Assembly (NCBI GenBank): GCA_964202905.1
Contig: CAXNJO010000002.1
Coordinates: 512,001 to 576,000 of the forward strand
Direction of reading: 5' to 3'
From: Polyangiales bacterium
GTDB lineage: Bacteria > Myxococcota_A > Polyangia > Polyangiales > JADJQN01
Length of the DNA: 64,000 nucleotides
The position numbers were made by a program, and so were the translations under genes. The notes beneath the pieces were generated by a model, which saw only the letters and a program-made list of their open reading frames with translations, was not told where the DNA came from and ran no database searches. Below, piece after piece: positions 1,850 through 19,242 of the stretch (position 1 is the first letter of the stretch; every line of letters begins with the position of its first letter).

Positions 1850-1864
1850 GGGTTTCTCGATCGA

Positions 1865-1883
1865 GTATCGGATAATCCGATAC
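1865..1883. promoter_or_regulatory. Perfect 9-bp inverted repeat, putative operator of the DUF6036 operon
   Basis: GTATCGGAT-A-ATCCGATAC just upstream of the ATG at 1849. Confidence 0.6.
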
Positions 1884-1987
1884 CACTCTGCGCCAGGCCG
1901 AGCCTTTCGTCAAGCGGCTGAGGCGAGAGGGCAGTTGCCCATGCCCGCGGCCCGCGGCGCGCCCTCGTTGGCGGACCACCCTGCTGG

Positions 1988-2057
1988 GCTAGTAACGTAT
2001 ACTTGACTAATGCTACATTCTAGTAAAGGATACGTTCCTAGCGCGTGGCGCTAGTAA
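1988..2057 (+). promoter_or_regulatory. AT-rich Fic promoter/operator region
   Basis: CTAGTAA at 1989, 2020 and 2051; 13-bp IR 1988-2000/2030-2042 (1 mismatch); TTGACT -35-like box at 2003. Confidence 0.6.
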
Positions 2058-2113
2058 CGCCGGCTTTCCCAGCCTGCGCGCCTGGTCAAGCGGGCGTTCC
2101 GAGCGGAGCCGAC

Positions 2114-3314
2114 ATGCGCATCCGAAGCACCGGACGATACGAGCGGACCACCGCGGGTGAGGAAGAGGTCGCGGCCTTCGTCCCGCACGCGTTGCCGCCC
2201 GCGGACCCGCCCATCGTCGTCGACGCCGCCTTGGCCGAGCGCCTCCGTGCAGCTGAGCAAGCCCTCGTTCGTCTCGAGCTGGCCGGGGAGATGGTCCCAT
2301 CACTCGACTGGTTCATCTACGCGTTCGTCCGCAAAGAGGCCGTGCTCTCGTCGCAGATCGAAGGGACACAGGCGACCCTCGTCGACCTGCTCACGTTCGA
2401 GGCCCAGGATGGCGGCGAAAACAGCGCCGCACCCAACGCCGACGTCGAGGAGGTGTGTAACTACCTCGACGCGCTCGCCTACGCACGCGCGCAGCTCGGC
2501 GACCCGAAGGGTCTGCCCCTTTCGATGCGCCTCCTGAGCGAGACGCACTCGCGCCTCATGCGCGGCGTCCGCGGCGCCGAGAAGCTGCCCGGCGAGGTGC
2601 GTCGCAGCCAGAACTGGATCGGCGGAAGCCGCCCCGGCAACGCCGCGTACGTGCCGCCACCTCCGCAGGCGCTCGGCGAGGTGCTGGGCGCGTTCGAGAA
2701 GTACCTGCACTGCGGACGACTCGCTGCCGCCGCTGGTGCGCGCGGGGCTGCTGCACGTGCAGTTCGAGACCATCCACCCGTACCTCGACGGCAACGGCCG
2801 CATCGGGCGCCTGCTCGTGACGTTGCTGCTCGAGGACTGGAAGCTGCTGACCAAGCCGCTCCTCTACCTGAGCCTCTTCTTCAAGCGGCACCGCGAGGAC
2901 TACTACCGTCGCCTCAACGCGGTCCGCATCGAGGGCGACTGGGAGGGCTGGCTCGACTTCTTCCTCGACGGGGTCGGGACGATCGCCGACGAAGCGGTCG
3001 CCTCCGCGCGGGAGCTGTTCGCGCTCGTGGCCGCGGACCGCGCGCGCGTGCTCGCGCACGAAGGGATGTCCGTCGTCGCCCTGAGGCTCTTCGAGCTGCT
3101 GCCGCGCCACCCGGTCGTGACCGTCGCATCGGTGATGAGGCTCGTGGACACGACCAAGCCCACCGCGGGACGGGCGATCGAGCTGCTCGTGGCCGCGGGC
3201 GTTCTCGTCGAGACGACCGGCAAGAAGCGCGACCGCTCCTTCGTGTACCGGGGCTACCTCGATCGACTCCGTGTCGGCACCGAGCTCGACGGCGCCTCGC
3301 GAACCAGGACGTAG
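2114..3314 (+). pseudogene. Fic-family protein (N-terminal inhibitory helix, Fic core, C-terminal HTH), frameshifted at ~2711
   Basis: SSQIEG motif in the first frame, HPYLDGNGRIGR in the next; removing one base at ~2711 gives ...YLHADDSLPPLVRAGLLHVQFETIHP...; could be an assembly error. Confidence 0.85.
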
Positions 3315-3417
3315 TTCCTCCAGCCCCTGTCCCACTTCGGTCGGGGATCCCGCGTTTGCCACGCGCGATGCCCGACCGCTCACCCTGCGCCCGTCCGCCC
3401 GCGATATCTTCACGGTC

Positions 3418-4683
3418 TTGGACGCCGAGCCCACCGACGACCTGCCGCTCATCCGCTGCGCCGTGTACACGCGGCAGTCGGTGGTGCGCGTCGGCGACGA
3501 TCCTGCCCTCGCGTCCTGCGTCGTGCAGCGCACCCTGTGTACCGAGTTCATCCGCTCGATGGCCTGGAGGGGCTGGTACCCGATCGGCGAGCGCTTCGAC
3601 GACGAGGGCTACAGCGGCGCGACCATCGAGCGCCCCGGCCTGGAGAAGCTCATCGCGCGCATCCAGGACGGCGACGTCCAGCGCGTCATCGTCTACCGGC
3701 TCGATCGCCTCACGCGGAAGCTCACCGACTGGGCGTTGCTCGTGCGGGTGTTCGAGCGGTTCAACGTCGGCCTCACCGTCGTGCACGGCGCCATCGACGC
3801 CGAGGCCGGCTCGCTCGCGCGGCTGCAGCTCAACCTGCTCGCGACCTTCGCCGAGCTGGAGCGCGACATGATCGGCGAGCGTCTGGCCGACGCCCGCGCC
3901 ACGAAGAAGGCCCGCGGAGAACGCGCCGCAGGTCGCGTGCCTCTTGGCTACGCCGCGGATCCGAAGACGAAGCAGCTCGTCATCCTCGAGTCGGAGGCCG
4001 CCGTCGTGCGTTGGTTCTTCACGGAGGCCGGGAGCGGCAAGTCGACCGCCGAGCTTGTCGCGCGAGCGAACGCGCTCCGGCTCATCGCGAAGAACGGCAA
4101 GCGGGGCGAGTGGTCAGCGCGCTCCGTTCTGCGCCTCCTGCAGAACCCCGTGTACGCCGGTCGTCGCCCCGATGGCGCGGCCGCAGTGCACACCGCGATC
4201 TTGCCTGTGGTCCTCTACGAGCGCGTGCAGGCAGCGATCGTCGCACGCAAGACGAGAGCCACCACGACGCGATCGAAGGTCGACGAGCGCGACGATCCTT
4301 TCCTCCTTCGCGGCCTGCTGGTCTGCGAAGGGTGCGGTCGCACGATGACGACCTCGATGAGCACCGCGCTCACCAAGAAGACCGCCCCGAAAGCGCCGCG
4401 CTACTACCGATGCCGCACAGAAGGCTGCGACGGCGGTCAGATCGCGGCCACCGATGTCGAAGGCATGGTCCTCGAGGCTCTCCGCAGGCCGCAATGGAAC
4501 TGGTCCGACGCAGCGAAGCAGCGGCTCGCGCAGCTCGCCTCGACGTGGGATGTGCTCTGGCCGCAGAACCGGCGCCGCGCGCTCGCCGACGCGTTCGAGA
4601 CGATGACGTGGCGGTCGCGAACGAAGCGGCTCCTGGTGCGGTTGCGCAGCGAGCCGAGCCCCGAAGGGCCCGCGGCTTCGTGA
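3418..4683 (+). CDS. Large serine recombinase (resolvase + recombinase + zinc-ribbon domains); start uncertain (frame open from 3271)
   Basis: CAVYTRQS catalytic Ser, DEGYSG..ERPGL, VYRLDRLTR, FAELERDMIGER, PLGY, LLRGLLVCEGCG...YYRC. Confidence 0.92.
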   Translation: MDAEPTDDLPLIRCAVYTRQSVVRVGDDPALASCVVQRTLCTEFIRSMAWRGWYPIGERFDDEGYSGATIERPGLEKLIARIQDGDVQRVIVYRLDRLTRKLTDWALLVRVFERFNVGLTVVHGAIDAEAGSLARLQLNLLATFAELERDMIGERLADARATKKARGERAAGRVPLGYAADPKTKQLVILESEAAVVRWFFTEAGSGKSTAELVARANALRLIAKNGKRGEWSARSVLRLLQNPVYAGRRPDGAAAVHTAILPVVLYERVQAAIVARKTRATTTRSKVDERDDPFLLRGLLVCEGCGRTMTTSMSTALTKKTAPKAPRYYRCRTEGCDGGQIAATDVEGMVLEALRRPQWNWSDAAKQRLAQLASTWDVLWPQNRRRALADAFETMTWRSRTKRLLVRLRSEPSPEGPAAS

Positions 4684-4797
4684 GGTCATCGACCCGATCG
4701 ACGACGTTGATGGGATCTCGTCGAGGACGCGTTCACCAGCGCCTGCGCCACTTGTCTCCCCGCTGGCCACGCACAGGAGCTCCCCGCGGCAACCTCG

Positions 4798-4931
4798 ACT
4801 TCACTAAAAACGCCTGGTTCACCTGAGCGGTAGACCTCGGTCTTTTAGTGAAGTAACCCGGTCCGGTTGGACATCAAGGTTCACTAAATCCGCCAGCTTC
4901 ACTTTCGGGTGAACCAGTGCTATTTAGTGAA
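4798..4931. promoter_or_regulatory. Two tandem inverted-repeat operators upstream of the AbiEi-like gene
   Basis: ACTTCACTAAAA 4798-4809 / TTTTAGTGAAGT 4843-4854; TTCACTAAAT 4880-4889 / ATTTAGTGAA 4922-4931; ATG at 4934. Confidence 0.75.
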
Positions 4932-4933
4932 GC

Positions 4934-5983
4934 ATGGCCGTCCGAACCATGGAAATGCAGCTCGTTGCGGAAGTCCCCGCGGCGCTGGCGAGCCTCCTGG
5001 ACGTACCCCAGGAGGACGTGAAGGTCGAGGCTGGAAGCGAGGCTGACCTGCGCGTGAGCGCGGCCGGGCACTCCTTCGTGGTCGAGGTGCTCGGTGCCGC
5101 GTCGCCTGGTGCGCTGGCGGCCCACGCCTCGCAGGTGGCCGCTTCTGCCCGCCGCCAGGGTCGAAAGGCCGTGCCGCTCCTGGTGGTGCCCTTCATGGGC
5201 GACGCGGGGCGCAGGGTCTGCGAGGACGCGAGCATCCCGTGGTTCGACCTCAGCGGGAACGCGCACATCGTCGCGCCCGGCATCCGAATCATCGTCGACG
5301 GACGGCCGAACCGCTTCCGTGGGCCCGGCCGCCCGGCGAGCATCTTTGCGCCCAAGAGCGCACGCGTCGTGCGCTGGCTGCTCGAGAACGAAGGTCGCGC
5401 CCTCACGCAGCGGGAGATCGCGCGCGCGACCGACATGACCGACGGCTTCGTCAGCCGCATCGCTTCTCGCCTCGAGGACGAGAGCTACGTCTTGCGAGAG
5501 CCGGGCGGCGCGCTCCGCGTGAAGGACCCGGCGCTCCTTCTCGATGCGTGGCGCGACGAGTACCGCTTCGACAAGCATGTGCTCCTCCAGGGGCACGTCG
5601 CCGCGCGCTCGGGCGACGCGCTCGCCCGCTTCGTCGGCGACACGCTCGCGGAAGGCTCGGTCGAGCACGCAGCCACCGGCCTCGCGGCGGCCTGGCAGAT
5701 GACGCACTTCGCTGCGTTTCGCATCGCGACCTTCTTCCTCGCCGAGTCCCCCTCGAAGGAGCTGCGTGAGAAGCTCGGCTTCCGCGAGGACGCGCGCGGT
5801 GCGAACCTCTGGCTCGTGCTTCCGAATGATGCCGGCGTCTTCCACGGAGCGGAGACGCGCGACGGCCTGCGGTGCGTCCACCCAGTTCAGGCTTACGTCG
5901 ATCTCAAGGCGCACCCCGAACGCGCGACGGAGGCGGCCGAGCGTCTGCGAAGCGAGCTGCTGAGCTGGAGGCATGATGGCTGA
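4934..5983 (+). CDS. Type IV TA AbiEi-like antitoxin / wHTH transcriptional regulator
   Basis: DLSGNAHI, HTH LTQREIARATDMTDGFVSRI, LLDAW, ATGLAAA, GANLWL, VHPVQAYVDL motifs; upstream of an NTase. Confidence 0.8.
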   Translation: MAVRTMEMQLVAEVPAALASLLDVPQEDVKVEAGSEADLRVSAAGHSFVVEVLGAASPGALAAHASQVAASARRQGRKAVPLLVVPFMGDAGRRVCEDASIPWFDLSGNAHIVAPGIRIIVDGRPNRFRGPGRPASIFAPKSARVVRWLLENEGRALTQREIARATDMTDGFVSRIASRLEDESYVLREPGGALRVKDPALLLDAWRDEYRFDKHVLLQGHVAARSGDALARFVGDTLAEGSVEHAATGLAAAWQMTHFAAFRIATFFLAESPSKELREKLGFREDARGANLWLVLPNDAGVFHGAETRDGLRCVHPVQAYVDLKAHPERATEAAERLRSELLSWRHDG

Positions 5984-6827
5984 GAAACCCAAGCACGCGT
6001 CGGAGTACAAGAGCGAGCAGGTCGAGCTCGTTCGCGCGATGTGCCTCTACGTCGCCACGAAGCTCGGCGACATGATGGACGACCTGCTCATCGTCGGCGG
6101 CTTGGTGCCGTCGCTGATCATCGACCAAGAGCACCTCGGCGAGGACGTGGATCCGCACGTCGGGACCATGGACCTCGACGTCGGACTTCAGGTCGCGTTG
6201 CTGAACGAGGGCCGCTACCGGCAGCTCACCGAGCGCCTGCGCGACGCGGGGTTCGAGATGGACAAGAACGACGCCGGGATCCCAACCCGTCAGCGCTGGG
6301 CCATCGCGAATGCGGAGCGCGTCACCATCGACTTCCTCATCCAGCCGACGCTCGAGGGGGACAAGGGCGGCAAGCTCCGCGACCTCGAGCCGGACTTCGC
6401 GGCGATCATCGCCCCGGGGCTGCGCTGCGCGTTCCGGGACCGCAAGCAAGTGACCATCAAGGGCACGACCCTCTTCGGCGAGAAGGCGACCCGGGACATC
6501 TGGGTGTGCGACGCCGGCGCGTACGTGGTGCTCAAGGCCCTCGCGTTCGATAGCCGCGGCGAGAACAAGGACGCCTACGACCTCTACTACGTTGTCCGGA
6601 ACTACGGCGCGGGCCCGACCGACGTCGCGTCGAAGCTGCAACCGCTGCTCGACGATGCCGACGCGCAGCGCGCCCTGACCATCCTGAAGCGCGACTTCTC
6701 CGAGCCAGACGCGGTCGGGCCGATGCGAGTCGCGGCCTTCGTCACCGGTGGAAGGGACGAGCAGCTTCAGGCGGATGTGGTCGGCTTCACCGGCCAGCTG
6801 CTCGCGAAGGTGAAAAGCGCGGGCTGA
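5973..6827 (+). CDS. AbiEii-like nucleotidyltransferase toxin
   Basis: LIVGGLVP, HVGTMDLDV, LKALA...KDAYDLYY; overlaps the antitoxin stop. Confidence 0.8.
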   Translation: MMAEKPKHASEYKSEQVELVRAMCLYVATKLGDMMDDLLIVGGLVPSLIIDQEHLGEDVDPHVGTMDLDVGLQVALLNEGRYRQLTERLRDAGFEMDKNDAGIPTRQRWAIANAERVTIDFLIQPTLEGDKGGKLRDLEPDFAAIIAPGLRCAFRDRKQVTIKGTTLFGEKATRDIWVCDAGAYVVLKALAFDSRGENKDAYDLYYVVRNYGAGPTDVASKLQPLLDDADAQRALTILKRDFSEPDAVGPMRVAAFVTGGRDEQLQADVVGFTGQLLAKVKSAG

Positions 6828-7153
6828 CCCGCCCGCACGAAACGGAACCAGCGGTTCCCTTCTGTGCGGCCCTGTCCCCGCAGCGCCTTCCGGCCGGCTT
6901 GCCCCCGAGACCGCCGGTCATCGAGCTGGAGCCGCTCATGAGTGCCGAGGAGCGCCTGGCCGATCTCCGACCCGGTCTTCGTCGGCTTGCAGTTCACGTA
7001 GGCGAGCAGGCAGTGCATGCGCAGGCGATCGGCCTGCCCGGTCAGCGACAGCATCGCCGGGCCGAGCGAGTCGAGGAACTTGCTCGACCACTGCGACGTC
7101 TCGGTGATCCTCCACCAGCCGTGGTACTCGGGCGGGATCGAGTCGAGGTCCAT
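6767..7153 (-). pseudogene. Truncated/chimeric small hypothetical protein
   Basis: N-terminus (GWWRITETSQW...LDSLGPAMLSL...VNCKPTKTG) looks protein-like; after ~6970 it reads into unrelated sequence and overlaps the convergent toxin gene. Confidence 0.45.
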
Positions 7154-7260
7154 GCGCGCATCACCATGCCATGAGCCCGGGCGTTCTTCGCGCGCGTTCT
7201 TTCCCCTGAGCGAGACCAGAGAGCGCGCGGTGGAACACGGCCTCGACGTCTTCGCCGGGC

Positions 7261-7571
7261 TGGTCAGTTAAACGTCAGCGGCTCCGTCCACCGAAAACCG
7301 GGCTCCGCTGTTAAACGCTCTCGGTTCCTCTCTCCCCGCGGGCCAGAAGAGAGAGCGCGAACGCCGTCCAGAGCACCCTCGACGCGTCGCTCCTTCGCGC
7401 CCGCGGCGCTCTCTGCGCGAACGCTGTCCACGCGCGCGGCGCGCTCGCCGAGCGTCGCAAGGTCGCGGAAACTGTCGGGGGAGAAACGCAAGCGGCCCCG
7501 GAGGATCGCTCTCCGGAGGCCGCTGTTTACTGACGCCTCTCGCGAAGTTCGCGACGAGGTAGAAATGGCTC
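7261..7571. repeat. Diverged direct-repeat copy of the ~310-bp tRNA-flanking element end (partner 12483-12785)
   Basis: Colinear blocks CAGTTAAACGT, GCTGTTAAACGCTCTCGGT, GAACGCTGTCCACGCGCGCGGCGCGCTCG, CTGTCGGGG, GAGGCCGCTGTT, CGAAGTTCGC, GAAATGGCTC. Confidence 0.92.
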
Positions 7572-7615
7572 TGGGACAGTTAATCGAACTCGCGACCGGC
7601 CGGCTAACAGCCGGC
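7566..7615 (-). pseudogene. Degenerate 3' half of tRNA-Asn (anticodon arm to CCA); att junction
   Basis: Ungapped 34/50 identity to 12780-12829 (counted by hand); keeps CCA, GTTCGA and a 5-bp stem GCCGG-CTGTTAG-CCGGC. Confidence 0.8.
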
Positions 7616-7767
7616 ACCGCAGGCGCCAGTAATATCAACCACTTGCGCGCTCTGGACGGCGTTCGCTTATCCGCCATGCGTGGCGGATATTTGGCGGAAG
7701 GCTCCGAATGCTCGCCCTTTGTGCTCCACCCCGGGACGGCTTCTCTGCGCTCGCAGCGTCCCATCGG

Positions 7768-8904
7768 TCACCCGCTCCCATCCCGCCCGGCCAGCGTGTA
7801 GACCGCGTTCTTCCGCGCCCCGCGTTTGGCGAGCACTCCGTCGCCGACCAGCTTCTGCAGCCGTCGCTGCACGGTGCGAAGGGGCGGCGCGTTCTTCCCG
7901 AGCCCCGCCACGATCGCCGCGCTGCCCGCCTGGCCGAGCCGCTCGACCACCTCGTACAGGTGCGCGTCGAGCGCGTCGGGTGGCGCGACGACCTTCCAGG
8001 GCAGGTGCTCCTCGTTGTCCCGCACGCGCCCGAGCGCCTCGAGCCGCTCCCAGAGCACGCGCAGCAGCGCCGAGGTGAACAGCTCGAAGTACTTCGTGAG
8101 GTCACCCTCGTCGGTCTCGAGCAGATTGATCCGCGCCGTGTCGAGAAGCTCGTGCTGCGCCACCGTCGCCTCGGTCAGCATCAAGAGTCCGTTGGCGTCG
8201 ACGTGTCCGGCGCGTAGCTCGTGGTGGAGGACGACGCTGACGGAACGCCAGCCGGGATACAGCAGCTTCAGCCCCCAGTAGAACGTCGCGGCTCGCAGCA
8301 CGGCCGACTTGGACACGAGCGGGTCCTGGTTCGTCCAGTCGAACATCGCCTTTTCCGATGGCGGCACTTTGCTCGCGTCCTTGTTCAGGTCGAGGAGCTT
8401 GCCCCGCTCACGCCTCGAATACGCCAGCCAACGCGCCTCCCTCAGACTGGGCGTGCCCTGGCTGGCGCGCTCGTACGCCATCGCTAGCTCCGGCGTGAGC
8501 CGGTTGTCGGAGCTACCTCGCGCTGTCGAGTAGTGGGCGAGCGCATCCTCGACGATCGCCGCGCGACGGATCGCCTCGGCGATGGGCTCGCGCTTGTCGA
8601 CGAGGCGCGCGCCACCAAGCACGGCCTCGACCTCTTCGAGCTTCACGCTCCGAAAGCTGCCGCCGACGACCCAGATGATCCGCATGAGCTTGGCCCGCGC
8701 CTCCAGCTCCTTGCGCCGGTAGTACGAGAGCGGGGCCGCCGTCATCTGGCCCGCGGCGTCAGCGATGCGGACGAGGCTGTCGACGAGGTTGGGCGTGATG
8801 GTGTACCGCCAGGGCTGCGGCGGCAGCTCGGTCAGCCGCGTGAGGAGGCGGACTTCCTCCTCCGAGAGGGTGGACGGAAGGCGTCGATCGCGCGGGCGTG
8901 TCAC
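7768..8904 (-). CDS. Fic-like protein lacking the catalytic HPFxDGNGR motif, with C-terminal winged helix
   Basis: YTITPNLVDSLVRIADAAG...LEEVEAVLGG Fic N-terminal pattern; GDLTKYFELF; LRTVQRRLQKLVGDGVL..RGARKNAVY wHTH; GTG start overlaps the upstream stop. Confidence 0.6.
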   Translation of the reverse strand: MTRPRDRRLPSTLSEEEVRLLTRLTELPPQPWRYTITPNLVDSLVRIADAAGQMTAAPLSYYRRKELEARAKLMRIIWVVGGSFRSVKLEEVEAVLGGARLVDKREPIAEAIRRAAIVEDALAHYSTARGSSDNRLTPELAMAYERASQGTPSLREARWLAYSRRERGKLLDLNKDASKVPPSEKAMFDWTNQDPLVSKSAVLRAATFYWGLKLLYPGWRSVSVVLHHELRAGHVDANGLLMLTEATVAQHELLDTARINLLETDEGDLTKYFELFTSALLRVLWERLEALGRVRDNEEHLPWKVVAPPDALDAHLYEVVERLGQAGSAAIVAGLGKNAPPLRTVQRRLQKLVGDGVLAKRGARKNAVYTLAGRDGSG

Positions 8905-9767
8905 CGCTCCCTCCGCTTCGTCGCCCGCTTCACGCGCGCCACGGCCTTCTTCAACCCCACGTCCTTCGGGTTGGAGAGATCTGCGACCACCGCGGTGACG
9001 GGGAGCTTGTTCCCGCGAGGCCCGAGAACGTCTCGGTAGACCTCCTCATCCTTTCGAAGGCGCGCGACGTCCTCGAGGACAGCATCGGCAGCGCGCCGAT
9101 CCGCGTCGGAGCGCACGTTCACGACGACGAACTGGGCGCGCTCGATTCCGGCGTAGCCGTCCTCGAGAGCCCAGTGCTCGGTGGGCGCCGGAGGCTTCGC
9201 GCGACGGACGTCGCCGAGCTTCGACTTCATCGAGCGACGCAGATCGTCGAGGACGCGTGGCTGCTTGAGCGCCATCGCCACGAGCGGCTCACCGAGCCCG
9301 CCGCCGAGGAGTCGCGCGAGCGCTTCCGGACTCTCGAGCGCCTCGGCGAAGTGCTCGATCGAGGCCTGGTGCGAAGCGGCGTGGTCGCGAACGACCCGAC
9401 GGAGCAGCGAGTGCCCCTTGGAGGGTACGGGCGCGACGAACACGGAGAGGTCGACGTAGTCGATGGGGCAGTCCCCTTCGATGAACACGGCCTCCGAGTA
9501 GTCCTGCATGAACGCGCTCGTGAAGAACGCATCCACGCTCGGCTCAGCGAATCGGTAGAGCGCCACGGCGCTCGCACCGGCGTCGCGGTAGCGACGAAGC
9601 TCGGCGTGGGTTTTCGGCGCAGACTCCTGCTCCTTGCGCAGCTTCGGGTCTCGCTCTGCCCGAACGCAGATGGCGAACGCGACCTCGGCGTCGAGCAGTC
9701 GCTCGACGAACGTCGTCTTACCCGCGCCGACGGGGCCCGCGGCGTGGATCAGCGCACGCTCCCTCAC
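8901..9767 (-). CDS. P-loop NTPase domain protein
   Basis: Walker A GPVGAGKTT near the N-terminus, VFIEG Walker-B-like; GTGA-coupled start. Confidence 0.75.
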   Translation of the reverse strand: MRERALIHAAGPVGAGKTTFVERLLDAEVAFAICVRAERDPKLRKEQESAPKTHAELRRYRDAGASAVALYRFAEPSVDAFFTSAFMQDYSEAVFIEGDCPIDYVDLSVFVAPVPSKGHSLLRRVVRDHAASHQASIEHFAEALESPEALARLLGGGLGEPLVAMALKQPRVLDDLRRSMKSKLGDVRRAKPPAPTEHWALEDGYAGIERAQFVVVNVRSDADRRAADAVLEDVARLRKDEEVYRDVLGPRGNKLPVTAVVADLSNPKDVGLKKAVARVKRATKRRER

Positions 9768-10972
9768 AGCCCCAACTCCCGGCCGAGCACCTTCGTCACG
9801 AAGCGTTCGCCCGCGCCTTCTGCGGCCACCAGCTTGCGCACGCGCTCCCGCACCTCGACCGCGCTGCCGTGGCGCTCCGCGGCCGCGAGCGTCGCGCGGT
9901 AGGCGTCCCACACGTCGACGCTCGTGATCTCGTAGCCGTAGCCCTGCACGAGCCAGTACAGCGACAGCAGCCCCGCAGAGGCCGCGAAGGCCGGCTGCTT
10001 CTCGGTGTAGTCCCGTGCGGCGCGCGCGAGCGTCTTCGGATCACAGGGCGTGCGGCTCGCGAGGGCGAGCGCCTCGTCGTACAGCCCCGCGTCCTTTGCG
10101 GCCGCGAACCACTTGCCCTCGTCACCGGGCGTGGTCTTCACGAGGTCCGCGAGGACTTCACCCGCCGCCTTGTGCGGGTACTTTTTCGAGACGGCGCGGA
10201 ACGTCGCGAGGTACGTGCCGCCCTGGTTCGCGCGCACGCCATACCGGGCGTAGGCCTCGTCAGCCATGCCCGACGAGAGGAGGATTTCCTCGCACACCGA
10301 GTCGACCTCGTGGTCGCTCGCCCATGGGCTTCGGCAGGACTCGGCGTAACGAAGCGCCTCGGCTTTCTTGCCGCTCGCTGCCATCGCCCGCACGGCCCAA
10401 TGCTTGTACGGCCAGATCGTATCGACGCGCAGCAGGTCGATGAGCTCGTCGAAGCGCTCGGCGCGGTAGAGCGCGCTCAAGCACGCCGAGGTCCCGTGGA
10501 AGTGGCCGCGCAGGGTCTTGTCCGGGCTCAGCGCCATGCGCGTGATGCCGACGAGCTTGTCCGCCCACGCGGACGCGACCTCCTTCGACGCGCACAGCTC
10601 GCCCCAATGATCGGCGAGCCGTTCGATGTACGGGATCTGATCGGCTTGATGCGCCTCGAACAGCCGCTCGAGCCAGGCGTCGCGCGTCTTCGCGTCGGCC
10701 GGCGCGCTGGCGATGATCGGCACCAGCTCCCCGATGGTGTTGCCAACCGCCGTACCGATGGAGCCCGACGAGCTGTCGACGTGCTCGAGCGCGGGCGACA
10801 CGCGCTCGAGGAATGCGATGGCCCCCTCGGCGGCGAGCACGGGGTCCTTCTTGGCGACCTTCTTGATCTCGGCGACGGCCTGCTTGATGCGCGTGATGGC
10901 CGGCTGCGATTTCCAGCCGAACGCATGCCGGCGGAAGCGCGCCTTGAACTCCCACTTGTGCGCCTCAGCCAT
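9764..10972 (-). CDS. Conserved hypothetical alpha-helical protein
   Basis: MAEAHKWEFKARFRRHAFGWKSQPA...; coding-like codon usage; overlaps both neighbours. Confidence 0.8.
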   Translation of the reverse strand: MAEAHKWEFKARFRRHAFGWKSQPAITRIKQAVAEIKKVAKKDPVLAAEGAIAFLERVSPALEHVDSSSGSIGTAVGNTIGELVPIIASAPADAKTRDAWLERLFEAHQADQIPYIERLADHWGELCASKEVASAWADKLVGITRMALSPDKTLRGHFHGTSACLSALYRAERFDELIDLLRVDTIWPYKHWAVRAMAASGKKAEALRYAESCRSPWASDHEVDSVCEEILLSSGMADEAYARYGVRANQGGTYLATFRAVSKKYPHKAAGEVLADLVKTTPGDEGKWFAAAKDAGLYDEALALASRTPCDPKTLARAARDYTEKQPAFAASAGLLSLYWLVQGYGYEITSVDVWDAYRATLAAAERHGSAVEVRERVRKLVAAEGAGERFVTKVLGRELGL

Positions 10973-12281
10973 CGCCGGGAACCTTCGCATCCGCCGCGAG
11001 CCGCAGCGAGCGCTCCGCAGCCTCACGCTCGCGGGCCAGCTCGGCGCGTAGCTCCTCCTCCGTGGGCAGGTACATCTGGTAGCGCGCGGCGAGGATCTGC
11101 TCGTTGTTCTCGGGCAGGGTGATCTTCGCCATCGCGTCGTTCTTCTCGGAGCAGAGGACGATGCCGATCGTCTTCGCCTCGTGCTCCGCGCGCTGGAAGC
11201 GGTCGAAGAAGTTCACGTACATCTGCATCTGCCCGAGGTCCTGGTGCGTGAGCTTGCCGAGCTTGAGATCGACGAGCACGAAGCAGCGGAGCAGGCGGTT
11301 GTAGAAGACGAGGTCGACGTAGAAGTGATCACCCTCGAGCGTCACGCGCTTCTGCCGCGCGACGAAGCAGAAGCCCTTGCCCAGCTCGAGGAGGAAGCCC
11401 TCGATGCGATCGATGATGGCCTGCTCGAGATCGCGCTCGCGCCAGTGAGACCGCTCGTCGAGCCCGAGGAACTCGAGCACGAAGGGATCCTTCAGCACGT
11501 CGGCGGGCACCTCGACTTCGTGTCCGCGCCGCGCGAGCGCGAGGACCTTCTCCTTGTCGCGGCTCTTCGCGAGCCGCTCGAAGAGGAGCGACGCGATCTG
11601 CCGCTCCAGCTCGCGGCTGGCCCAGCTCTCGCGCGCGGCCTCGATCTCGTAGAACGCGCGCGCCGTCGGGTTCGCGACCCGCATGAGGAGCAGGTAGTGC
11701 GTCCACCCGAGGTACGGCGGAAAGGGCGCGGGCCCGCCCGCAGTTTCGGTCAGCGCCGCTGTCCGGATGCCTCTGCGCGATTCGCTAGGCACTGCCGAGC
11801 GAATCTTCGACGACGCCGAAACGCTAGGCAGCGCCGAGCGTTTCTCGGGGCGACTCGCGGCGCCGCCAAGCGCCCCGGGCAGCGCCGACCCCTCGGGGTA
11901 CGTGAGGTAGAACTGCCGCATGTTGCGCAGGTTCGGGACGCTGAAGCCCTTGCCGACTCGACCCGCCAGACGCTTCGCGAGCCCCTCGATCACGCGCGCG
12001 CCATAGCCCGCGCGCTTCTCGCCGTGCTGCTCCACCTCGACGATCTCGCGCCCGATGAGCCAGTACGCCTGCACCGTCGCCGTGTTGACCGAGCGCGCGA
12101 CGTGACCGCGCGCCGCCTCGATGATGTCGACGACACGAGCGAAGAGCGCGTCCTCGTGGCGCGCGGTCGCTGGCTTCGTCGCCGCGACGGCCTTCTTGCG
12201 AGGCGGCTTCTTCACGACGCCACCGAGCACGCGCTGCCTGCGCGCCTGGTGTTCTTCCGGTGCTGGACGGTGCTCGCTCAT
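10965..12281 (-). CDS. DUF1016/YhcG PD-(D/E)XK nuclease-domain protein
   Basis: AYWLIGREIVE, GFSVPNLRNMRQFY, WTHY, KDPFVLEFL, FLLELGKGF, VDLVFYNRLLRCFVLVDLK, GQMQMY. Confidence 0.95.
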   Translation of the reverse strand: MSEHRPAPEEHQARRQRVLGGVVKKPPRKKAVAATKPATARHEDALFARVVDIIEAARGHVARSVNTATVQAYWLIGREIVEVEQHGEKRAGYGARVIEGLAKRLAGRVGKGFSVPNLRNMRQFYLTYPEGSALPGALGGAASRPEKRSALPSVSASSKIRSAVPSESRRGIRTAALTETAGGPAPFPPYLGWTHYLLLMRVANPTARAFYEIEAARESWASRELERQIASLLFERLAKSRDKEKVLALARRGHEVEVPADVLKDPFVLEFLGLDERSHWRERDLEQAIIDRIEGFLLELGKGFCFVARQKRVTLEGDHFYVDLVFYNRLLRCFVLVDLKLGKLTHQDLGQMQMYVNFFDRFQRAEHEAKTIGIVLCSEKNDAMAKITLPENNEQILAARYQMYLPTEEELRAELAREREAAERSLRLAADAKVPGDG

Positions 12282-12482
12282 GCTCTGGTGACCCGATGGA
12301 GGAGGCCCCGCGCAAGTCCCCGAAAGTCCAAGCGTTGGGCGTCGCTGCGCTCTTTGTTTCTCTCTGTTCGGCGACTTTATACGCCACCATGGTGGCGGAC
12401 ACCAAACGGAAAGAGCGCGAGCGACGTGGCGGCGGGGACCTCGCGCGCGACGACGGAGAGCGCGTCGGCGCTCTCGCGGCGG

Positions 12483-12785
12483 TGGCCAGTTAAACGTTCG
12501 CCGCCCCGTCCCGCCCGAAGGGGCCGAGCTGTTAAACGCTCTCGGTCTCTCTCTCCCCGGTGGCCAGCACTCGACGCCAAAACGCCGCCCCGCGCGGGAG
12601 AAACGAGCGCACGCGAGCGCGCTCTTCGCTCTCTGCTTGAACGCTGTCCACGCGCGCGGCGCGCTCGTCGAACGCGCAAAGCCGCGGAACTGTCGGGGAG
12701 AAAAAGAAGCGGCCTCGAGGATCTCTCCGCGAGGCCGCTGTTCACTGTCCGGTCGTCGAAGTTCGCACGACCGATGAAATGGCTC
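12483..12785. repeat. ~310-bp noncoding element end immediately downstream of tRNA-Asn (partner 7261-7571)
   Basis: Same colinear blocks as 7261-7571. Confidence 0.92.
12699..12739 (-). terminator. Intrinsic terminator downstream of tRNA-Asn
   Basis: 10-bp stem AGCGGCCTCG/CGAGGCCGCT followed on the minus strand by TCTTTTTCT. Confidence 0.75.
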
Positions 12786-12855
12786 CGAGACCTGGACTCG
12801 AACCAGGGACCATTCGGTTAACAGCCGAACGCTCTACCAACTGAGCTATCTCGGA
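12780..12855 (-). tRNA. tRNA-Asn(GTT), CCA encoded
   Basis: TCCGAGATAGCTCAGTTGGTAGAGCGTTCGGCTGTTAACCGAATGGTCCCTGGTTCGAGTCCAGGTCTCGGAGCCA, 76-nt cloverleaf. Confidence 0.98.
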
Positions 12856-12913
12856 ATGTGGGCCGCTTGTGTAGCGCGGCGCGGGGGACTGTCAAGAAGG
12901 AGGCGGTGACGGG

Positions 12914-13723
12914 TCAGGGGAGGCGCTTGACGAGGTGGAAGCCGAACTCGGTCTCGACCACGGGGCTGACCTGGCCGGGGGGGAGCGCGAAGGCCACGCG
13001 CTCGTATTCGGGGGCGAGGCGGCCGCGGCCGATGGTGCCGAGGTCGCCGCCGCGCTCGGCCGAGGCGTCGTCGCTGAGGGTGCGGGCGACCTGCGCGAAG
13101 TCGGCGCCGTCGAGGAGGGTGTTGCGGATCTCGGCGGCGCGGCGGGCGGCCTCCTCGCGCGTGCGGCGCACCTCGGGGCCCGCGTTCTTCGCGCCGCGAT
13201 ACCGCACGAGGATGTGGCGGGTGTGGACCTTCTCAACCGGACAGCGGCGCGCGAGGACGTAGCCGTAGGGCATGCGCACGACGTCGCTGAGACCGCCCAC
13301 CGGCAGCGCGAAGACGAGCGCGCGCAGACCGTCGTGGAGTGCGGGCCAATCGCTCTGACCGAAGGTGCCCATGAGCCCGCCGCGGGCGGCGCTCGTCGGC
13401 GCGTCCGACTCGGTGCGCGCGAGCGCGGTGAGGTCTTCGCCCGCCTCGACGCGCGCGCGCAGGGACTCGGCCCGCGCACGCGCCGCGCTCTCGTCGCGCG
13501 TGACCGTCGCCGGTGTGCGGTCCGCGCCCTGCCACGCGACCACGAGGATCTGCGCGCAGGCCTCGTCGTTGGCGGCGGGCGCGGCAGCGGGTGCGGGCAC
13601 GGCAGGCGGCGTCGCCGAAGGCGCAGCGACTGCGGCGCGCGATGGCTCCGCGGCGGGCTTGCATGCGGGCAGCACGACGAGCGCGAGGGCGACGAAGCGG
13701 GAGGACCGGGGCGACACGCGCAT
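12914..13723 (-). CDS. Parvulin/PpiC-type peptidyl-prolyl isomerase lipoprotein (two rotamase domains)
   Basis: Lipobox LPAC; RHILVRY, GADFAQVARTLSDD, GGDLG, ETEFGFHLVKR. Confidence 0.9.
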   Translation of the reverse strand: MRVSPRSSRFVALALVVLPACKPAAEPSRAAVAAPSATPPAVPAPAAAPAANDEACAQILVVAWQGADRTPATVTRDESAARARAESLRARVEAGEDLTALARTESDAPTSAARGGLMGTFGQSDWPALHDGLRALVFALPVGGLSDVVRMPYGYVLARRCPVEKVHTRHILVRYRGAKNAGPEVRRTREEAARRAAEIRNTLLDGADFAQVARTLSDDASAERGGDLGTIGRGRLAPEYERVAFALPPGQVSPVVETEFGFHLVKRLP

Positions 13724-13794
13724 GGGCGTGCAGCGTATCGCGGAGACGCTTGCGCGCCCATCGCCGGGGCTCTGCGACGCGGGTGCGCGCGCGG

Positions 13795-14526
13795 TCAGGG
13801 CGTCTCGAGCGGCGCGTCGACCTGGCCCATCTGCTCGTCGGTGGTGACGGGGAAGCGCTCGAAGTCGGCCTCCTGGACGGGGCGACAGCGGGCGCGCTGG
13901 AGCGAGCCGGCGATGGTCGCGTTGGGCGCGATGTAGAGCGTGAGCGAGACGCGCCCGCGGAAGATGAGGAAGACGTCCATCACCGTGAGCGCCGATTTGC
14001 GCCAGGTGAAGCGGCGCGTCGGCACACCGCCGGTGTCGGGGCAATCCCAATAGCCGGAGGGTCGCCCGTAGGTCTCGTTCATCGAGATGAGGTGGGGCGC
14101 GAGCGCCTCGGGCGTCGGCAACATCGAGAGGACCTGCAGCTGGACGAGGCGACCGGCCCGCCGGTCGAGCCCGTAGACGACGCTCGCGCCGTTGGGGAGG
14201 TCTTCTTTGCGGAAGAGCAGGACCGGGTCTTCGTTGCGGGGGTCGCGTGCGGAGGCCGGGCGCACTTCCTGGAGCTGCGCCTCGCTCATGCCCAGTTCGA
14301 CGCCTCGCAGGAGCGACGGCACGAGCGCGGCGGACTCCTCCCGCGCGCGATCGATGAGGCGCTGCGCGCGCGCACGCTCCTCGTCGGCATGGCGGGCATC
14401 GGCCGCGCGGCGGGCCTCCGCCTCGTGCGCCTCGGACACGCGCAGATAGACGACGGCGCCCGCGGCGAGGAGCGCGAAGGCGAGGAACGAGAGCGCGGGG
14501 ACGAGGCGGTTGCGCGGCGCGGACAC
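13795..14526 (-). CDS. Hypothetical protein with N-terminal membrane anchor
   Basis: Hydrophobic helix LSFLAFALLAAGAVVYL followed by a globular region; start uncertain. Confidence 0.65.
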   Translation of the reverse strand: MSAPRNRLVPALSFLAFALLAAGAVVYLRVSEAHEAEARRAADARHADEERARAQRLIDRAREESAALVPSLLRGVELGMSEAQLQEVRPASARDPRNEDPVLLFRKEDLPNGASVVYGLDRRAGRLVQLQVLSMLPTPEALAPHLISMNETYGRPSGYWDCPDTGGVPTRRFTWRKSALTVMDVFLIFRGRVSLTLYIAPNATIAGSLQRARCRPVQEADFERFPVTTDEQMGQVDAPLETP

Positions 14527-14645
14527 GGGTGGGCGAGCGTAGCGCAAACGCCGCGCAGGTCGCGGTCCGCGGCGTGTCGCGGGCACACGCGACGGCACCC
14601 CGCGGGGCGCGGGATCCGATCGCGCGACGTCCGGCGGCGTGCGCT

Positions 14646-15578
14646 TCAGCGCGCGAGCACGTGGCGGAGCGCGCCCGTGAGGTCCGGGAACGCGAACGAA
14701 TACGCATGCTCGGCGAGGACCCGCGGGCGCACGTGCTGGCCGTGCAGCAGCGCCTCGTCGGCCATCGCGCCGAGCGCGGCGCGGAGCGCGAACGCCGGCA
14801 CGGGGAAGAACGCGGGGCGCGAGAGCACCGACGCGAGCGCGCGCGTGAAGTCGGCGTTCGTCGTGTGCGCGGGCGCGACGAGGTTGACCGGACCGCGCAG
14901 CGTGTCGTCGCGGAGCGCGAGCGCGAGCGCGCCGAGCACGTCGTCGATGGCGATCCAGGGGAACCCCTGACGGCCGTCGCCGAGTCGCCCGCCGGCGCCC
15001 AACCGGAAGATCGGCACGAGCCGCTCGAGCGCGCCTCCGCGCGGCGCGAGCACGACGCCGATGCGCGGGTGCACCACACGGACGCCCGCGTCACGCGCGG
15101 GCTGCGCGGCGGCCTCCCACGCCTCGCACACCTCGGCGAGGAAGCCCTCGCCGCGCGCCGCGGACTCGTCGACCTCGCGCTCGCCCGTGTCGCCGTAGAA
15201 GCCGACTGCCGACGCGCTCACGAGCACACGCGGTCCGGCGCGTCGCGCGGCGATCGCGCGCGCGAGCAGCCCCGTGCCGTCCACACGGCTGCCGCGGATG
15301 CGCGCCTTGCGCGCCGGCGTCCAGCGCCCCTCGGCGACGCTCTCGCCCGCGAGGTGCACCACGGCATCGACGCCTTCGAGCGCCTCGGCGTCGAGCTCGC
15401 CGCGCGCCGGGTCCCAGCGGATCGCCCCCGTGGGAGACGCGCCGCCGCCACGCACGAAGGGCAGCACCGTGTAGCCACGCTCGGCGAGGTGGGCGCGCAA
15501 CGCGGTGCCGATCAACCCGCTCGCGCCGGTGATGGCGACCCGCCCCGCTTCCTGCTTCCGATCTTGCGCATCACTCAT
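14646..15578 (-). CDS. TIGR01777-family NAD-dependent epimerase/oxidoreductase
   Basis: ITGASGLIG, VHLAGE, SASAVGFYG, FLAEVCEAWE, PWIAIDD. Confidence 0.93.
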   Translation of the reverse strand: MSDAQDRKQEAGRVAITGASGLIGTALRAHLAERGYTVLPFVRGGGASPTGAIRWDPARGELDAEALEGVDAVVHLAGESVAEGRWTPARKARIRGSRVDGTGLLARAIAARRAGPRVLVSASAVGFYGDTGEREVDESAARGEGFLAEVCEAWEAAAQPARDAGVRVVHPRIGVVLAPRGGALERLVPIFRLGAGGRLGDGRQGFPWIAIDDVLGALALALRDDTLRGPVNLVAPAHTTNADFTRALASVLSRPAFFPVPAFALRAALGAMADEALLHGQHVRPRVLAEHAYSFAFPDLTGALRHVLAR

Positions 15579-15694
15579 CGCTACCTGCCTTCCGCGCCAC
15601 GACGTGCGCGCGGCGTCGGGCCGCGCAAACCCCCGAAAACATACGTCCTGCGCGCGGTGGCCCGGCGCACCCGCTTCGTGTAGCTTCCGGCCCC

Positions 15695-17140
15695 ATGGAA
15701 ATCCTCTTCGTGACCTCCGAGGTCGCCCCCTACAGCAAGGCGACCGGCCTCGCCGAGGTGTGCGGCGCGCTGCCGAAGGCGCTGCGCGGGCTCGGACACA
15801 AGGTCACCGTCCTCTCGCCCCTCTACGCGCACATCGATCCGGCGGCCCGCTCGCTCGCGCGCCGCCTGATGAAGATCGAGGTGATGCTCGGCGGCAAGAA
15901 GGTCGCCTGCGAACTCTACGACGGCCGCACCTCCGGCGGCGTCGATCTGCTCTTCCTCGGCCACGAGGAGTTGTTCCGCCGCGTGCCGCACCTCTACGGC
16001 GAGGGCGAGGCGTACGCGCTCGACGCCCAGCGCTTCGCGCTGCTCTCGCTCGGCGCGCTCGAGCTGATCAAGAAGCGTGAGCCGCGCTTCGACGTGCTGC
16101 ATGCGCACGACTGGCCCGCCGCGCTCGCGGTCTTTCTCGCGAAGCGCGATCCGGCGCTCGCAGGCCTGCCCACGGTGCTCACCGTCCACGATCTCGCGCG
16201 TCAAGGCAGCTTCCCGAAGGGCACGATGGAGACGCTGGGGCTCCCGTGGGAGCTCTTCAACCCCGAAGGCCTCGAGTTCTACGGGCTGCTCAACCTCCTG
16301 AAGGGCGGTGTCCTCGCCGCAGATCGTGTGACGACGGTGTCGCCCTCGTACGCCGCGGAGGTCCGCACCCCCGAGGGCGGTCACGGGCTCGACGGCGTGC
16401 TGCGCGCGCGCGGCCGCGACCTCGTCGGCATCCTCGACGGCGTGGACGTCGCGGTGTGGAACCCCGCGACCGACGCCGCCCTCCCCGCCCGCTTCGATCC
16501 CATCGACCTCACGGGCAAGGCGCGCAGCAAGAGCGAGCTGCAGCGCGCGCTCGGGCTCCCGCAGCGCGCGGACGTCCCGCTCGTCGGCGCGACGGGCAAG
16601 CCCGTGGCGGCGCGCGGCTTCGATCTGCTCGTGAAGGCGCTCCCGCAGATCCTCCGCAACGATGTGCAGGTGGTCGTGCACGCCGAGGAGGGCGGCGACG
16701 CGGAGCTCCTCGACGTGCTCGCCGAGCTCGCGACGCGCTGGCCCGATCGCCTCGCCGTGCTGCACGCCGACGACTCCGGCACGCACCGCGTGCTCGGCGG
16801 CGCAGACCTGCTCGTCGTCCCCTCGCGCACCGAACCGAGCGGTCACCTCCAGCGCTACGCGCACCGCTACGGCGCGCTGCCGATCTGCCGGCGCACGGGC
16901 GGTCACGTCGACACGGTCGTCGACGCGGACGCCAAGCTCGAGAGCGGCAGCGGCTTCCTCTACGACGACGCCACGCCGCAGGCGCTGCTCGGCGCGGTGC
17001 GCCGCGGGCTCGCGGCTTTCACGCTCGGTGCCCCGTTCGACGGCATGCGCCGACGCGCGATGCGCATCGACCACTCGTGGGAGCGCAGCGCACGGCTCTA
17101 CGAGGCGCTCTACCGCGACCTGACGACGCCCGCGCAGTGA
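15695..17140 (+). CDS. glgA: Glycogen synthase-like GT5 glycosyltransferase
   Basis: ILFVTSEVAPYSK..GLA, HAHDW, TTVSPSYA.E, WNPATD, PSRTEPSG, SWERSA..Y. Confidence 0.85.
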   Translation: MEILFVTSEVAPYSKATGLAEVCGALPKALRGLGHKVTVLSPLYAHIDPAARSLARRLMKIEVMLGGKKVACELYDGRTSGGVDLLFLGHEELFRRVPHLYGEGEAYALDAQRFALLSLGALELIKKREPRFDVLHAHDWPAALAVFLAKRDPALAGLPTVLTVHDLARQGSFPKGTMETLGLPWELFNPEGLEFYGLLNLLKGGVLAADRVTTVSPSYAAEVRTPEGGHGLDGVLRARGRDLVGILDGVDVAVWNPATDAALPARFDPIDLTGKARSKSELQRALGLPQRADVPLVGATGKPVAARGFDLLVKALPQILRNDVQVVVHAEEGGDAELLDVLAELATRWPDRLAVLHADDSGTHRVLGGADLLVVPSRTEPSGHLQRYAHRYGALPICRRTGGHVDTVVDADAKLESGSGFLYDDATPQALLGAVRRGLAAFTLGAPFDGMRRRAMRIDHSWERSARLYEALYRDLTTPAQ

Positions 17141-17185
17141 GCGTCGACAGCGGGGCCCGGCGTGCCGCGCAGCGCGCGCGCCGGA

Positions 17186-17671
17186 TCACTCGCGGAAGTT
17201 GGTGAACTGCAGATCGGCCTTGAAATCCTCGGCCTTCAGGGCGGCGATGGCCTCCTGGAGGTCGTCGCGCTTCTTGCCCGCGACGCGCACCTGATCGGCC
17301 TGGATCGACGCCTGCACCTTGAGCTTGGTGTCCTTGATGTGCTTGACGATCTCCCGGGCCTTCTCGATCGAGATGCCCTGCTGGAGCTTGATCACCTGAC
17401 GGAACGTGCCCTTCGTCGCGGGCTCGACCTTCTGCGGGTCGAGCGAGCGCACGGACACGCCGCGCTTGATCAGCTTCTCTAGCAGGACCGTGCGGGCAGC
17501 CTCGAGGCGCCCTTCGCTCGACGAGCGCAGGAGCATGCCCTCGTCGGTCTTCTCGATCTCGGTGCCCGTGTCCTTGAAATCGAAGCGTGAGCCGATCTCC
17601 TTCTGCGCTTGGAGGACGGCGTTGTCGACCTCGTTCATGGAGACCTTCGAGACGATGTCGAACGACGGCAT
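17186..17671 (-). CDS. yajQ: YajQ-family nucleotide/c-di-GMP-binding protein
   Basis: MPSFDIVSK..EVDNA, RFDFK, KVQASIQ.DQVRV.GKKRDDLQ, QFTNFRE. Confidence 0.95.
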   Translation of the reverse strand: MPSFDIVSKVSMNEVDNAVLQAQKEIGSRFDFKDTGTEIEKTDEGMLLRSSSEGRLEAARTVLLEKLIKRGVSVRSLDPQKVEPATKGTFRQVIKLQQGISIEKAREIVKHIKDTKLKVQASIQADQVRVAGKKRDDLQEAIAALKAEDFKADLQFTNFRE

Positions 17672-17739
17672 GCGATCAGTCCTCCGCGTGGATGTGGCGC
17701 GCGACGATAGGGACCTCGCCGCGCCGACGCAAGCGTGGC

Positions 17740-18453
17740 TCAACGAGACGGGAGCGTGATGTCCGGCGCGCGCACGTAGAGCGGCTCGAGCGCGCCGAGC
17801 GCATCCGCGCCGCGCCGCGCGTAGAGACGCGCCGCCTCGCGCGCGAGGGCCGCAGCCCCAGGGAATCCAGCGCCTTTCGGCCCCGCGACCACCACACGAC
17901 CCGCGACAACGAGCGCGGCCTCGAGCGGACCGCGCAGCGATGGGGGCGCGTCGCCGACGAGCACGAGCGCGCCCGCGTCCGCGGGAAGCCCCGCGAGGAT
18001 CCGCGCCGCGGCGTCCTCGGGCGACGCGTGAAAGGGCGCGATCCGCTCGACCAGGTCGCCAGCGGCGTCCTCCGCGTAGGCCGCGCCGAAGACCTCCTGC
18101 TTGTGGGCGTCGAGGAGCGTGACGGCGATGCGCGCGCCCGGCTCGACGCCTCGCGCGAGCACGCGCAGCGAGCACACCCCGACGAGCGGCGTGCCCCGCG
18201 CGAGCGCGAGCCCCTTCACGGTCGCGAGGGCCACGCGCACGCCCGTGAACGAGCCCGGCCCGAGACCGACCGCGAAGAGCTCCACTTCGGCGATCCCGAC
18301 GCCGGCCTCCTCGAGCACGCGCACGACGTTCGGGAGCAGCGTCTCGCCGTGCTTCGCGCTCACGCGGGCCGCGAGCTCCGCGCGCACCTCCCCTCGCTCG
18401 ACGAGCGCCACCGAGCCGACCGCCGTCGAGGTGTCCACAGCGAGGACGAGCAC
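17740..18453 (-). CDS. tsaB: tRNA threonylcarbamoyladenosine biosynthesis protein TsaB
   Basis: LAVDTST, HGETLLP, GPGSFTGVR, LEPLYVR. Confidence 0.93.
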   Translation of the reverse strand: MLVLAVDTSTAVGSVALVERGEVRAELAARVSAKHGETLLPNVVRVLEEAGVGIAEVELFAVGLGPGSFTGVRVALATVKGLALARGTPLVGVCSLRVLARGVEPGARIAVTLLDAHKQEVFGAAYAEDAAGDLVERIAPFHASPEDAAARILAGLPADAGALVLVGDAPPSLRGPLEAALVVAGRVVVAGPKGAGFPGAAALAREAARLYARRGADALGALEPLYVRAPDITLPSR

Positions 18454-19199: not shown

Positions 19200-19242
19200 C
19201 CGCGCGATCCGAGCACCCGACCCCCCGCGAGATCGGAACGAG

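Follow-up and report, generated by a model that had tools for sequence, protein, structure and literature searches.

How a gene cassette that encodes no recombinase comes to stand exactly between the 3' end of a tRNA gene and a diverged copy of the sequence behind that gene is the question raised by a 5.2-kb cassette (7572-12785) in the genome of a Polyangiales bacterium (assembly GCA_964202905.1). The window analysed here is the whole stretch of 64,000 nt taken from contig CAXNJO010000002.1 (C2 below), and all plain positions refer to it; other genomes and loci are cited by our own G and L numbers. By comparison of sequences we propose, with a probability of roughly 0.7, that islands accrete site-specifically at the 3' end of tRNA-Asn through large serine recombinases (LSRs), and that the cassette would be the last-arrived, recombinase-less unit, moved by the enzyme of its neighbour. 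The tRNA-Asn system itself is real, well-bounded and widespread.

The target gene, tRNA-Asn(GTT), lies on the minus strand at 12780-12855 with the loop motif CTGTTAA at 12818-12824, and its 3' end carries the sequence GAGCCA (12780-12785, minus strand), which locus comparison and the break of metagenome contig X3-23 at 12787 mark as crossover core and left boundary of the cassette. Behind it lies a conserved non-coding left end, armA (12445-12779, minus strand), with two hairpins, a T-rich run and three copies of a TTAACAG-like motif, the first of which stands 35 nt past the core as a mirror of the anticodon-loop motif; in a promoter and terminator scan nothing exceeded the shuffles and the arm hairpins were not called. 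A preliminary description of this DNA had stated that the region downstream of tRNA-Asn recurs at the far junction of the interval, and indeed 12445-12827 matches 7223-7613 at 281/392 positions (72%, E 8e-61). Full copies of this repeat in the 5.68-Mb assembly (94% complete) are these two only, together with a 52-nt fragment at C13:107283-107333, and repeat finders run over 1-20000 gave it in fragments only. The second GAGCCA (7566-7571, minus strand) is the right boundary of the cassette, again from locus comparison and from the break of contig X1-3 at 7562, and is followed by armB (7223-7565, minus strand), the left end of an older unit B; this arm variant sits immediately behind tRNA-Asn in L159. 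The tRNA-Asn-like 3' piece described at 7566-7615 is likewise there, with 34/50 ungapped identities to 12780-12829 (binomial p 9e-10 at local composition) and 19/33 (p 1e-4) when core and loop are left out, at a spacing of 5214 bp from the tRNA. Rfam found the tRNA alone and did not score the tRNA-like piece, called psi below, as a tRNA. The four-gene operon without a recombinase was also confirmed, the interval being filled by four overlapping minus-strand open reading frames (ORFs) in whose products Pfam, NCBIfam and PADLOC gave no recombinase.

The position of the crossover could be read from related loci. Among 401 genomes of the order, 33 were positive for the arm at E<=1e-6 (including the source genome and one unpublished genome), and the arm pattern was found at 69 loci in the genome_contigs set, mostly titled Myxococcota or Deltaproteobacteria, with Sorangium cellulosum So ce26 and a Myxococcus isolate among the carriers; a few loci are titled as other phyla, for which binning errors are possible. 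GAGCCA stands 41-47 nt upstream of the arm pattern in 59 of the 69 loci (36 intact tRNA-Asn ends and 23 internal junctions), and the ten left out comprise two clipped at the contig start and eight without a core at the expected distance, four of these eight lying behind tRNA-Asn. Among the 36 tRNA-adjacent loci the 3' halves are of 31 kinds and the 5' acceptor strands of 17, with acceptor stems fully paired in 34, and the 12 loci with an identical 36-nt arm start have 11 different tRNA 3' halves. Averaged over pairs among 25 loci, identity amounts to 0.73 on the left side of the core and to 0.94 on its right side, and armA-type starts show the same pattern of host-matched halves. A crossover at the anticodon loop, as initially described, would give like halves with like arms; since the halves differ, the comparison places the crossover at the 3' end of tRNA-Asn with GAGCCA as its core, element sequence beginning directly after GAGCCA. 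The ends at internal junctions fall into several families and most are not tRNA-like at all. A lake-metagenome contig, X1-3, shows full identity over 7562-7957, and the 92 letters in front of this part do not match the adjoining window sequence, and the match of X3-23 ends at 12787; the first metagenome run may be the source sample of the window. The same tRNA-Asn is used by other elements at the T-loop and at the anticodon loop (L148, L174, L163), so that the tRNA-Asn of these bacteria offers at least three crossover positions.

What then is the tRNA-like piece? Psi proper (7572-7610, minus strand), an attachment (att)-like half-site, carries CTGTTAG at 7604-7610, placed relative to the core as the loop motif is in the tRNA. 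Five copies share 36-40 of 40 positions, the window copy shares 26/40 with the tRNA of its own genome, and the best of 37 tRNA halves reaches 28/40. Because psi is alike among copies and far from the host tRNA, it is carried with the cassette, and the earlier view of 7566-7615 as a host half decayed in place has to be given up, the piece travelling with the cassette among hosts; on this comparison psi is the cassette's own att-like right end. GAGCCA is kept in 9 of 11 psi copies, some of them near-identical and not independent, and what follows it in these nine is the main arm with different cargo in six, two other arm types in one each and a truncated GGACT ORF in one. In L198 psi is joined to the GGACT ORF without its first half, a junction for which deletion could be an alternative origin. 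The start of armB in the window is 0.93 identical to that of the tRNA-adjacent locus L159 and 0.58 to the arm of G263, although psi is shared with the latter at 38/40. The distance from the loop motif to the core in psi equals that in the tRNA, with the arm mirror 35-36 nt on the other side of the core, and this motif-core pattern occurs four times in the 5.68-Mb genome, tRNA and psi included. Similar layouts with unrelated, non-tRNA spacers were found at far unit ends in G004, G025 and L154, and a clean mirror in G175. Psi could have its origin in a half that an anticodon-loop element once displaced; in G429 a separate tyrosine-integrase element uses that loop, with its integrase beside the intact tRNA and the displaced half 40 kb on.

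The same cassette is found on different neighbours. Copies are 88-95% identical in G035, G263, G108 and G279 and 70-77% identical in G092 and G004, and next to psi the subterminal right-end region, endL (7611-7770, minus strand), is conserved at 81-87% in G263, G035, G108 and G279. Gene content varies, with an extra gene of about 510 aa in G108, G092 and G004 and one of the four window genes, for a 288-aa protein, missing in G035 and G263. The neighbour is a unit with a 421-aa LSR in the window and G035, and in G108 a unit with a 514-aa LSR and restriction-modification genes; complete copies contain no recombinase relic, and homologues of two cassette proteins, the YhcG-type and the 402-aa protein, occur beside LSRs in G089, G257 and G345. 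The comparative loci thus agree with the preliminary description in that cassettes without a recombinase, alike in a conserved end next to the tRNA, form a family that stands in tandem at tRNA-Asn, and they support varying gene content, defence-type cargo and a need for an outside recombinase. Cargo at the tRNA-Asn site includes restriction-modification, ABC-3C, MrcB-like and toxin-antitoxin-type genes, Cas genes and metal-efflux operons, and some of it may function in defence. No match was obtained for the arm pattern in viral contigs or for the cassette ends in plasmid and phage records, and no relaxase family turned up in domain scans of the window and island-region proteins. The motif GGAC[AG]GCGTTCGC was tried as an inverted end repeat and rejected, 1 of 24 right ends passing the threshold.

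Which enzyme, then, would move the cassette? The preliminary description had proposed to look for an integrase left of the window, yet an LSR lies within it, in unit B (554-7571) behind the cassette. This 421-aa protein (3418-4683, plus strand) has Resolvase, Recombinase and Zn ribbon domains with the catalytic Ser motif, its gene points at the tRNA, and its best solved relative is the TP901-1 integrase; since a homologue can be aligned with it at 89% across 398 residues, it looks intact. Three of the 20 matches to it were dropped (two from the genome itself, one unpublished), and the 17 usable ones include seven within 35 kb behind tRNA-Asn, three in arm arrays and two behind tRNA-Arg. The two tRNA-Arg-adjacent relatives (L234 in G257 and L231 in G366) are 58-60% identical to the window LSR, which suggests a target switch within the clade.

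For whole-genome searches 34 of the 69 arm loci were taken, picked for longer contigs, and 14 of these 34 arm-bearing genomes proved to contain an LSR of full length with an identity of 58% or more to the 514-aa type. Eleven of the 14 have it on the contig of the arm, 5-32 kb downstream and invariably aimed at the arm, mostly within a module that also holds DUF2924 and a 150-aa gene. Two LSR clades therefore sit downstream of the arm or of tRNA-Asn in many Myxococcota, and from this association in genomes we infer the LSR as the probable enzyme. Among the tyrosine-recombinase matches listed for the 11 genomes none lies between arm and LSR, and no Phage_integrase family is listed among 237 island-region proteins. 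In the conserved module of L034 (6191-10375) and its homologues, an IrrE-like peptidase plus helix-turn-helix (HTH) is oriented divergently to a row of DUF2924, a 61-aa gene, the 514-aa LSR and the 150-aa gene, and the small genes are candidates for a directionality factor. In L179 (5419-7850) three tandem tyrosine recombinase genes, which we take to be RIT-like, are inserted at the DUF2924 end of the LSR module.

Under the proposed mechanism, the 3' end of tRNA-Asn would serve as attachment site for Myxococcota islands that recombine at a core of about 6 bp, GAGCCA, share a left arm of about 330 bp and, in autonomous members, carry an LSR toward the far end. A newcomer, presumably by way of a circular intermediate, would enter at the junction of tRNA and arm and displace older units outward, leaving as residue a right end, GAGCCA and the older arm in this order. 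The cassette (7572-12785) would then have been inserted last, on top of unit B (554-7571), its right end imitating a tRNA half-site. An LSR encoded by a neighbour, in this case at 3418-4683, would move it either by itself or within a composite.

Several observations weigh against this account. The preliminary description had proposed a search for a circle joining the cassette ends and for an empty tRNA-Asn site in relatives: no circle joint at the cores was present among the joints listed from metagenome contigs of four sets, and no empty site turned up in a syntenic relative, the candidates being G001 without a tRNA-Asn match (80% complete), G002, in which this tRNA is followed by a different arm type, and G039, armless and non-syntenic. 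Psi is conserved about as well as the cassette body (92-95%), so its conservation shows no selection of its own; the loop motif is in register at just 4 of 23 internal junctions, and the CTGTTAA/TTAACAG dyad, whose role in recombination we suspect, is for that reason not general. Five of the 17 homologues of the 421-aa LSR could be tied neither to a tRNA nor to an arm, 16 of the 34 arm-bearing genomes have no match to the 514-aa LSR at E<=1e-20, as would be expected if units without a recombinase are frequent, but also if assemblies are incomplete, and the DUF2924 and 150-aa partners of that LSR were not found in the source genome. Several of the loci compared are near-identical or related and hence not independent. 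In G004, finally, there is a related cassette with an internal junction at which the 3' half, from the anticodon loop onward, is identical to that of the host, and the island also contains a tyrosine recombinase. This locus (L045, 4409-19061) is a triple array at tRNA-Asn with two related YhcG cassettes in tandem on a third arm, one junction having the host-identical half and the next a non-tRNA spacer; the bin contains three near-identical tRNA-Asn loci and many frameshifts, so that its assembly quality calls for caution.

Other histories of the locus have to be weighed against the same data. The 5.2-kb unit could be a decayed island, a cis-mobilizable element (CIME), that was accreted once and is now a passenger of the LSR unit behind it, different neighbours having arisen by later deletion or by homologous exchange within the shared arm. 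In keeping with such a fixed composite, the window and G035 share cassette, 128-aa gene and LSR at 93-99.7%, G263 matches 7259-8910 at 93%, and junction-spanning deletions are common (G035, L200, L110, L149). However, the sequence switches exactly at GAGCCA and not within the arm, the same right end adjoins a third arm type and an unrelated truncated ORF, and the neighbour in G108 has an LSR of the other clade with restriction-modification cargo; we consider this history unlikely. A tyrosine integrase acting in trans, with insertion at the anticodon loop and 7566-7615 as the displaced host 3' half, would explain why psi keeps the tRNA register (34/50) and why G004 has a host-identical half starting from the loop, and the element in G429 does use the loop, so that psi may descend from such a relic. 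This model is largely refuted by the comparison, since the tRNA halves next to armA vary from host to host, each pairing with the 5' strand of its own host; psi, moreover, is common to hosts with differing tRNAs, and the three tyrosine recombinases of the genome lie on other contigs. It strikes us as very improbable. We give hardly any credence to a target-specific DDE transposon of Tn7-like type behind tRNA-Asn, with GAGCCA as a target duplication of 5-6 bp: the short duplicated core, the long conserved ends with repeated motifs, the fixed orientation and one protein with rve and AAA domains near an arm in L068 would fit it, but there are no terminal inverted repeats at 23 junction ends, no TniQ/TnsD family is listed among the 237 proteins, an inverted subterminal motif is above threshold in 1/24 right ends only, and the consistent neighbour is an LSR.

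It is also conceivable, though doubtful, that the cassette has been a dedicated satellite from the start, with no need for an integrase of its own and with a right end mimicking the target half-site, and that the dyad read by the LSR or a partner is unusually wide, about 90 bp, with the invariant anticodon-loop motif on one side and its arm mirror on the other side around GAGC. If so, tRNA-Asn would be recognised in any host regardless of how its stems read, this would account for the spread of a single arm over many genera and possibly phyla, and serine integrases would have a new mode of target recognition that could serve as a ready integration tool for myxobacteria.

Accretion by LSRs at tRNA-Asn, the reading preferred here, has partial counterparts among known systems. 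Islands at ssrA in Dehalococcoides have DsiB, a CcrB-like serine recombinase, as putative integrase, and 15 of 31 lack an integration module (PMC3146451); as described there they resemble the present units in tandem arrangement at the end of a stable-RNA gene, in the LSR and in the many members without an integration module. They differ in target (tmRNA there, tRNA-Asn here), in having a 20-bp repeat in place of a core of about 6 bp, in the LSR lying at attL and not far from the target, and in the DsiA/ParB/Mom module, of which none was seen here, and the arm of about 330 bp is shared by the present units. The tmRNA of the source genome is at C2:720830, about 196 kb away. Composites of staphylococcal cassette chromosomes (SCC/SCCmec) and ccr-less islands also form LSR cassettes at a gene 3' end, with internal att sites of degenerate dyad symmetry and with recombinase-less members (PMC13739063). 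By association the present units share the SCC-like mode of an LSR, a short core at a gene 3' end and tandem units with internal att sites, and yet are no SCC members, being located at a place other than rlmH, in Myxococcota, with a dyad motif 32-36 nt from the core and a single LSR far under the cut-offs of the NCBIfam Ccr models (CcrB 103.6 bits against 900, CcrA 68.9 against 700, CcrC 56.2 against 900).

The structural definition of a CIME fits the 5.2-kb cassette, which has att ends, no integrase or transfer genes and a tandem position with a recombinase-bearing element, and the co-occurrence with the same neighbour in G035 is compatible with mobilisation in cis. In the account of PMC5704250, CIMEs are decayed, older residents, and serine-type integrative mobilizable elements lie within genes, with tyrosine types at gene ends; the cassette, unlike the CIMEs reviewed there, is target-proximal, 92-95% conserved across families and free of a recombinase relic. 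Islander-type islands and tycheposons likewise stand in tandem at tRNA genes with newcomers pushing older units outward (PMC4383910; bioRxiv 10.1101/2020.12.28.424599), but they are reported to restore the tRNA by an element-borne fragment, 910 of 937 elements of the tycheposon set being of tyrosine type (bioRxiv 10.1101/2020.12.28.424599), whereas here the host tRNA is whole and the terminal core alone is shared. There are 31 distinct host-matched halves in 36 sites, and the three tyrosine-integrase matches of the genome all lie off C2. Neither terminal inverted repeats nor TnsB/TniQ genes, as expected of a Tn7-like element, were found at the junction ends and among the island-region proteins listed.

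The attC core of integrons reads GTTRRRY, and GTTAAAC within the arm fits it, but its copies are direct repeats inside the arm. The integron-like array suggested by the preliminary description found no support as a mechanism, as no IntI was found at cut-off in the source genome (best TIGR02249 score 80.6 against 265).

According to a 2014 account, no serine integrase is known to have a tRNA gene as its target, and the Islander search of that paper requires a tyrosine integrase and a tRNA fragment (PMC4383910), so that it would miss or mis-border the units described here. The pairing of LSR and tRNA is uncommon, not unheard of, since 27 of 937 elements in the tycheposon set lack a tyrosine integrase and carry an LSR (bioRxiv 10.1101/2020.12.28.424599); the available part of bioRxiv 10.1101/2025.09.16.676606 has nothing on serine integrases at tRNAs. 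No account of this cassette family was met in the literature searched, which included few subscription papers and no supplementary tables. What the comparison defines is a cargo hotspot at tRNA-Asn in Myxococcota that is seemingly run by serine recombinases. Entries for tRNA-targeting serine integrases may exist in LSR surveys (Durrant 2023) and in TIGER (Mageeney 2020). With precise ends and a candidate enzyme, trans-mobilisation of recombinase-less cassettes becomes directly testable, and a site-specific integration system for natural-product myxobacteria is a possible outcome. For SCC composites a related question, the excision of non-cognate inner elements, is called unknown in PMC13739063.

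The four cassette genes all lie on the minus strand. A YhcG/DUF1016 gene (10965-12230, alternative start 12281) encodes a member of a predicted PD-(D/E)XK nuclease family (PMC1189080), a PADLOC candidate of class PDC-S02. It is followed by the gene for a 402-aa alpha-solenoid protein (9764-10972), for which DUF6880 is a lead and structure comparison gave no specific fold match. This family is very widespread, with 6660 of 8000 scored candidates, nearly all without annotation. The accessory 288-aa protein (8901-9767) has an N-terminal P-loop motif, and the 378-aa protein (7768-8904) is predicted to have a Fic fold with a C-terminal winged-helix-like domain, its sequence having no canonical Fic motif. 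A hidden recombinase in the 378-aa and 402-aa proteins was considered and rejected, their predicted folds being Fic with winged-helix-like domain and alpha-solenoid, respectively.

Unit B consists, in order from the cassette, of armB, the 128-aa gene, an AbiE-like pair, the LSR, a Fic gene, a DUF6036 pair and the right end. The 128-aa gene (6767-7153, minus strand) has no assigned function, and the pair of AbiE-like HTH antitoxin and nucleotidyltransferase (4934-6827, plus strand) rests on weak matches. Beyond the LSR are a SoFic-type Fic gene (2114-3314, plus strand), frameshifted between about 2600 and 2715, and, at 625-1849 on the minus strand, a DUF6036 nucleotidyltransferase (1310-1849) with its 231-aa partner (625-1320). 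The right end of the unit, of the type called end600 (554-640, minus strand), is truncated before its GAGCCA core by a multi-copy insertion sequence (1-553, plus strand), presumably IS3-like, which continues left beyond the window. Elsewhere in the window, ARAGORN reported a tRNA-Thr(CGT) at 57783-57879, of unusual length (97 nt) and possibly spurious.

The source genome contains further related loci. A second remnant of a 421-aa-LSR unit lies at C13:102960-108207 (L075), with a 5'-truncated LSR of 94% identity, three cargo genes common to G191 and the 52-nt arm fragment, flanked by transposase-like ORFs and with no tRNA nearby. A further island, at C6:241417-253305, encodes two unrelated LSRs along with a small serine recombinase, and one LSR ORF in it extends into a tRNA-Glu/tRNA-Lys pair.

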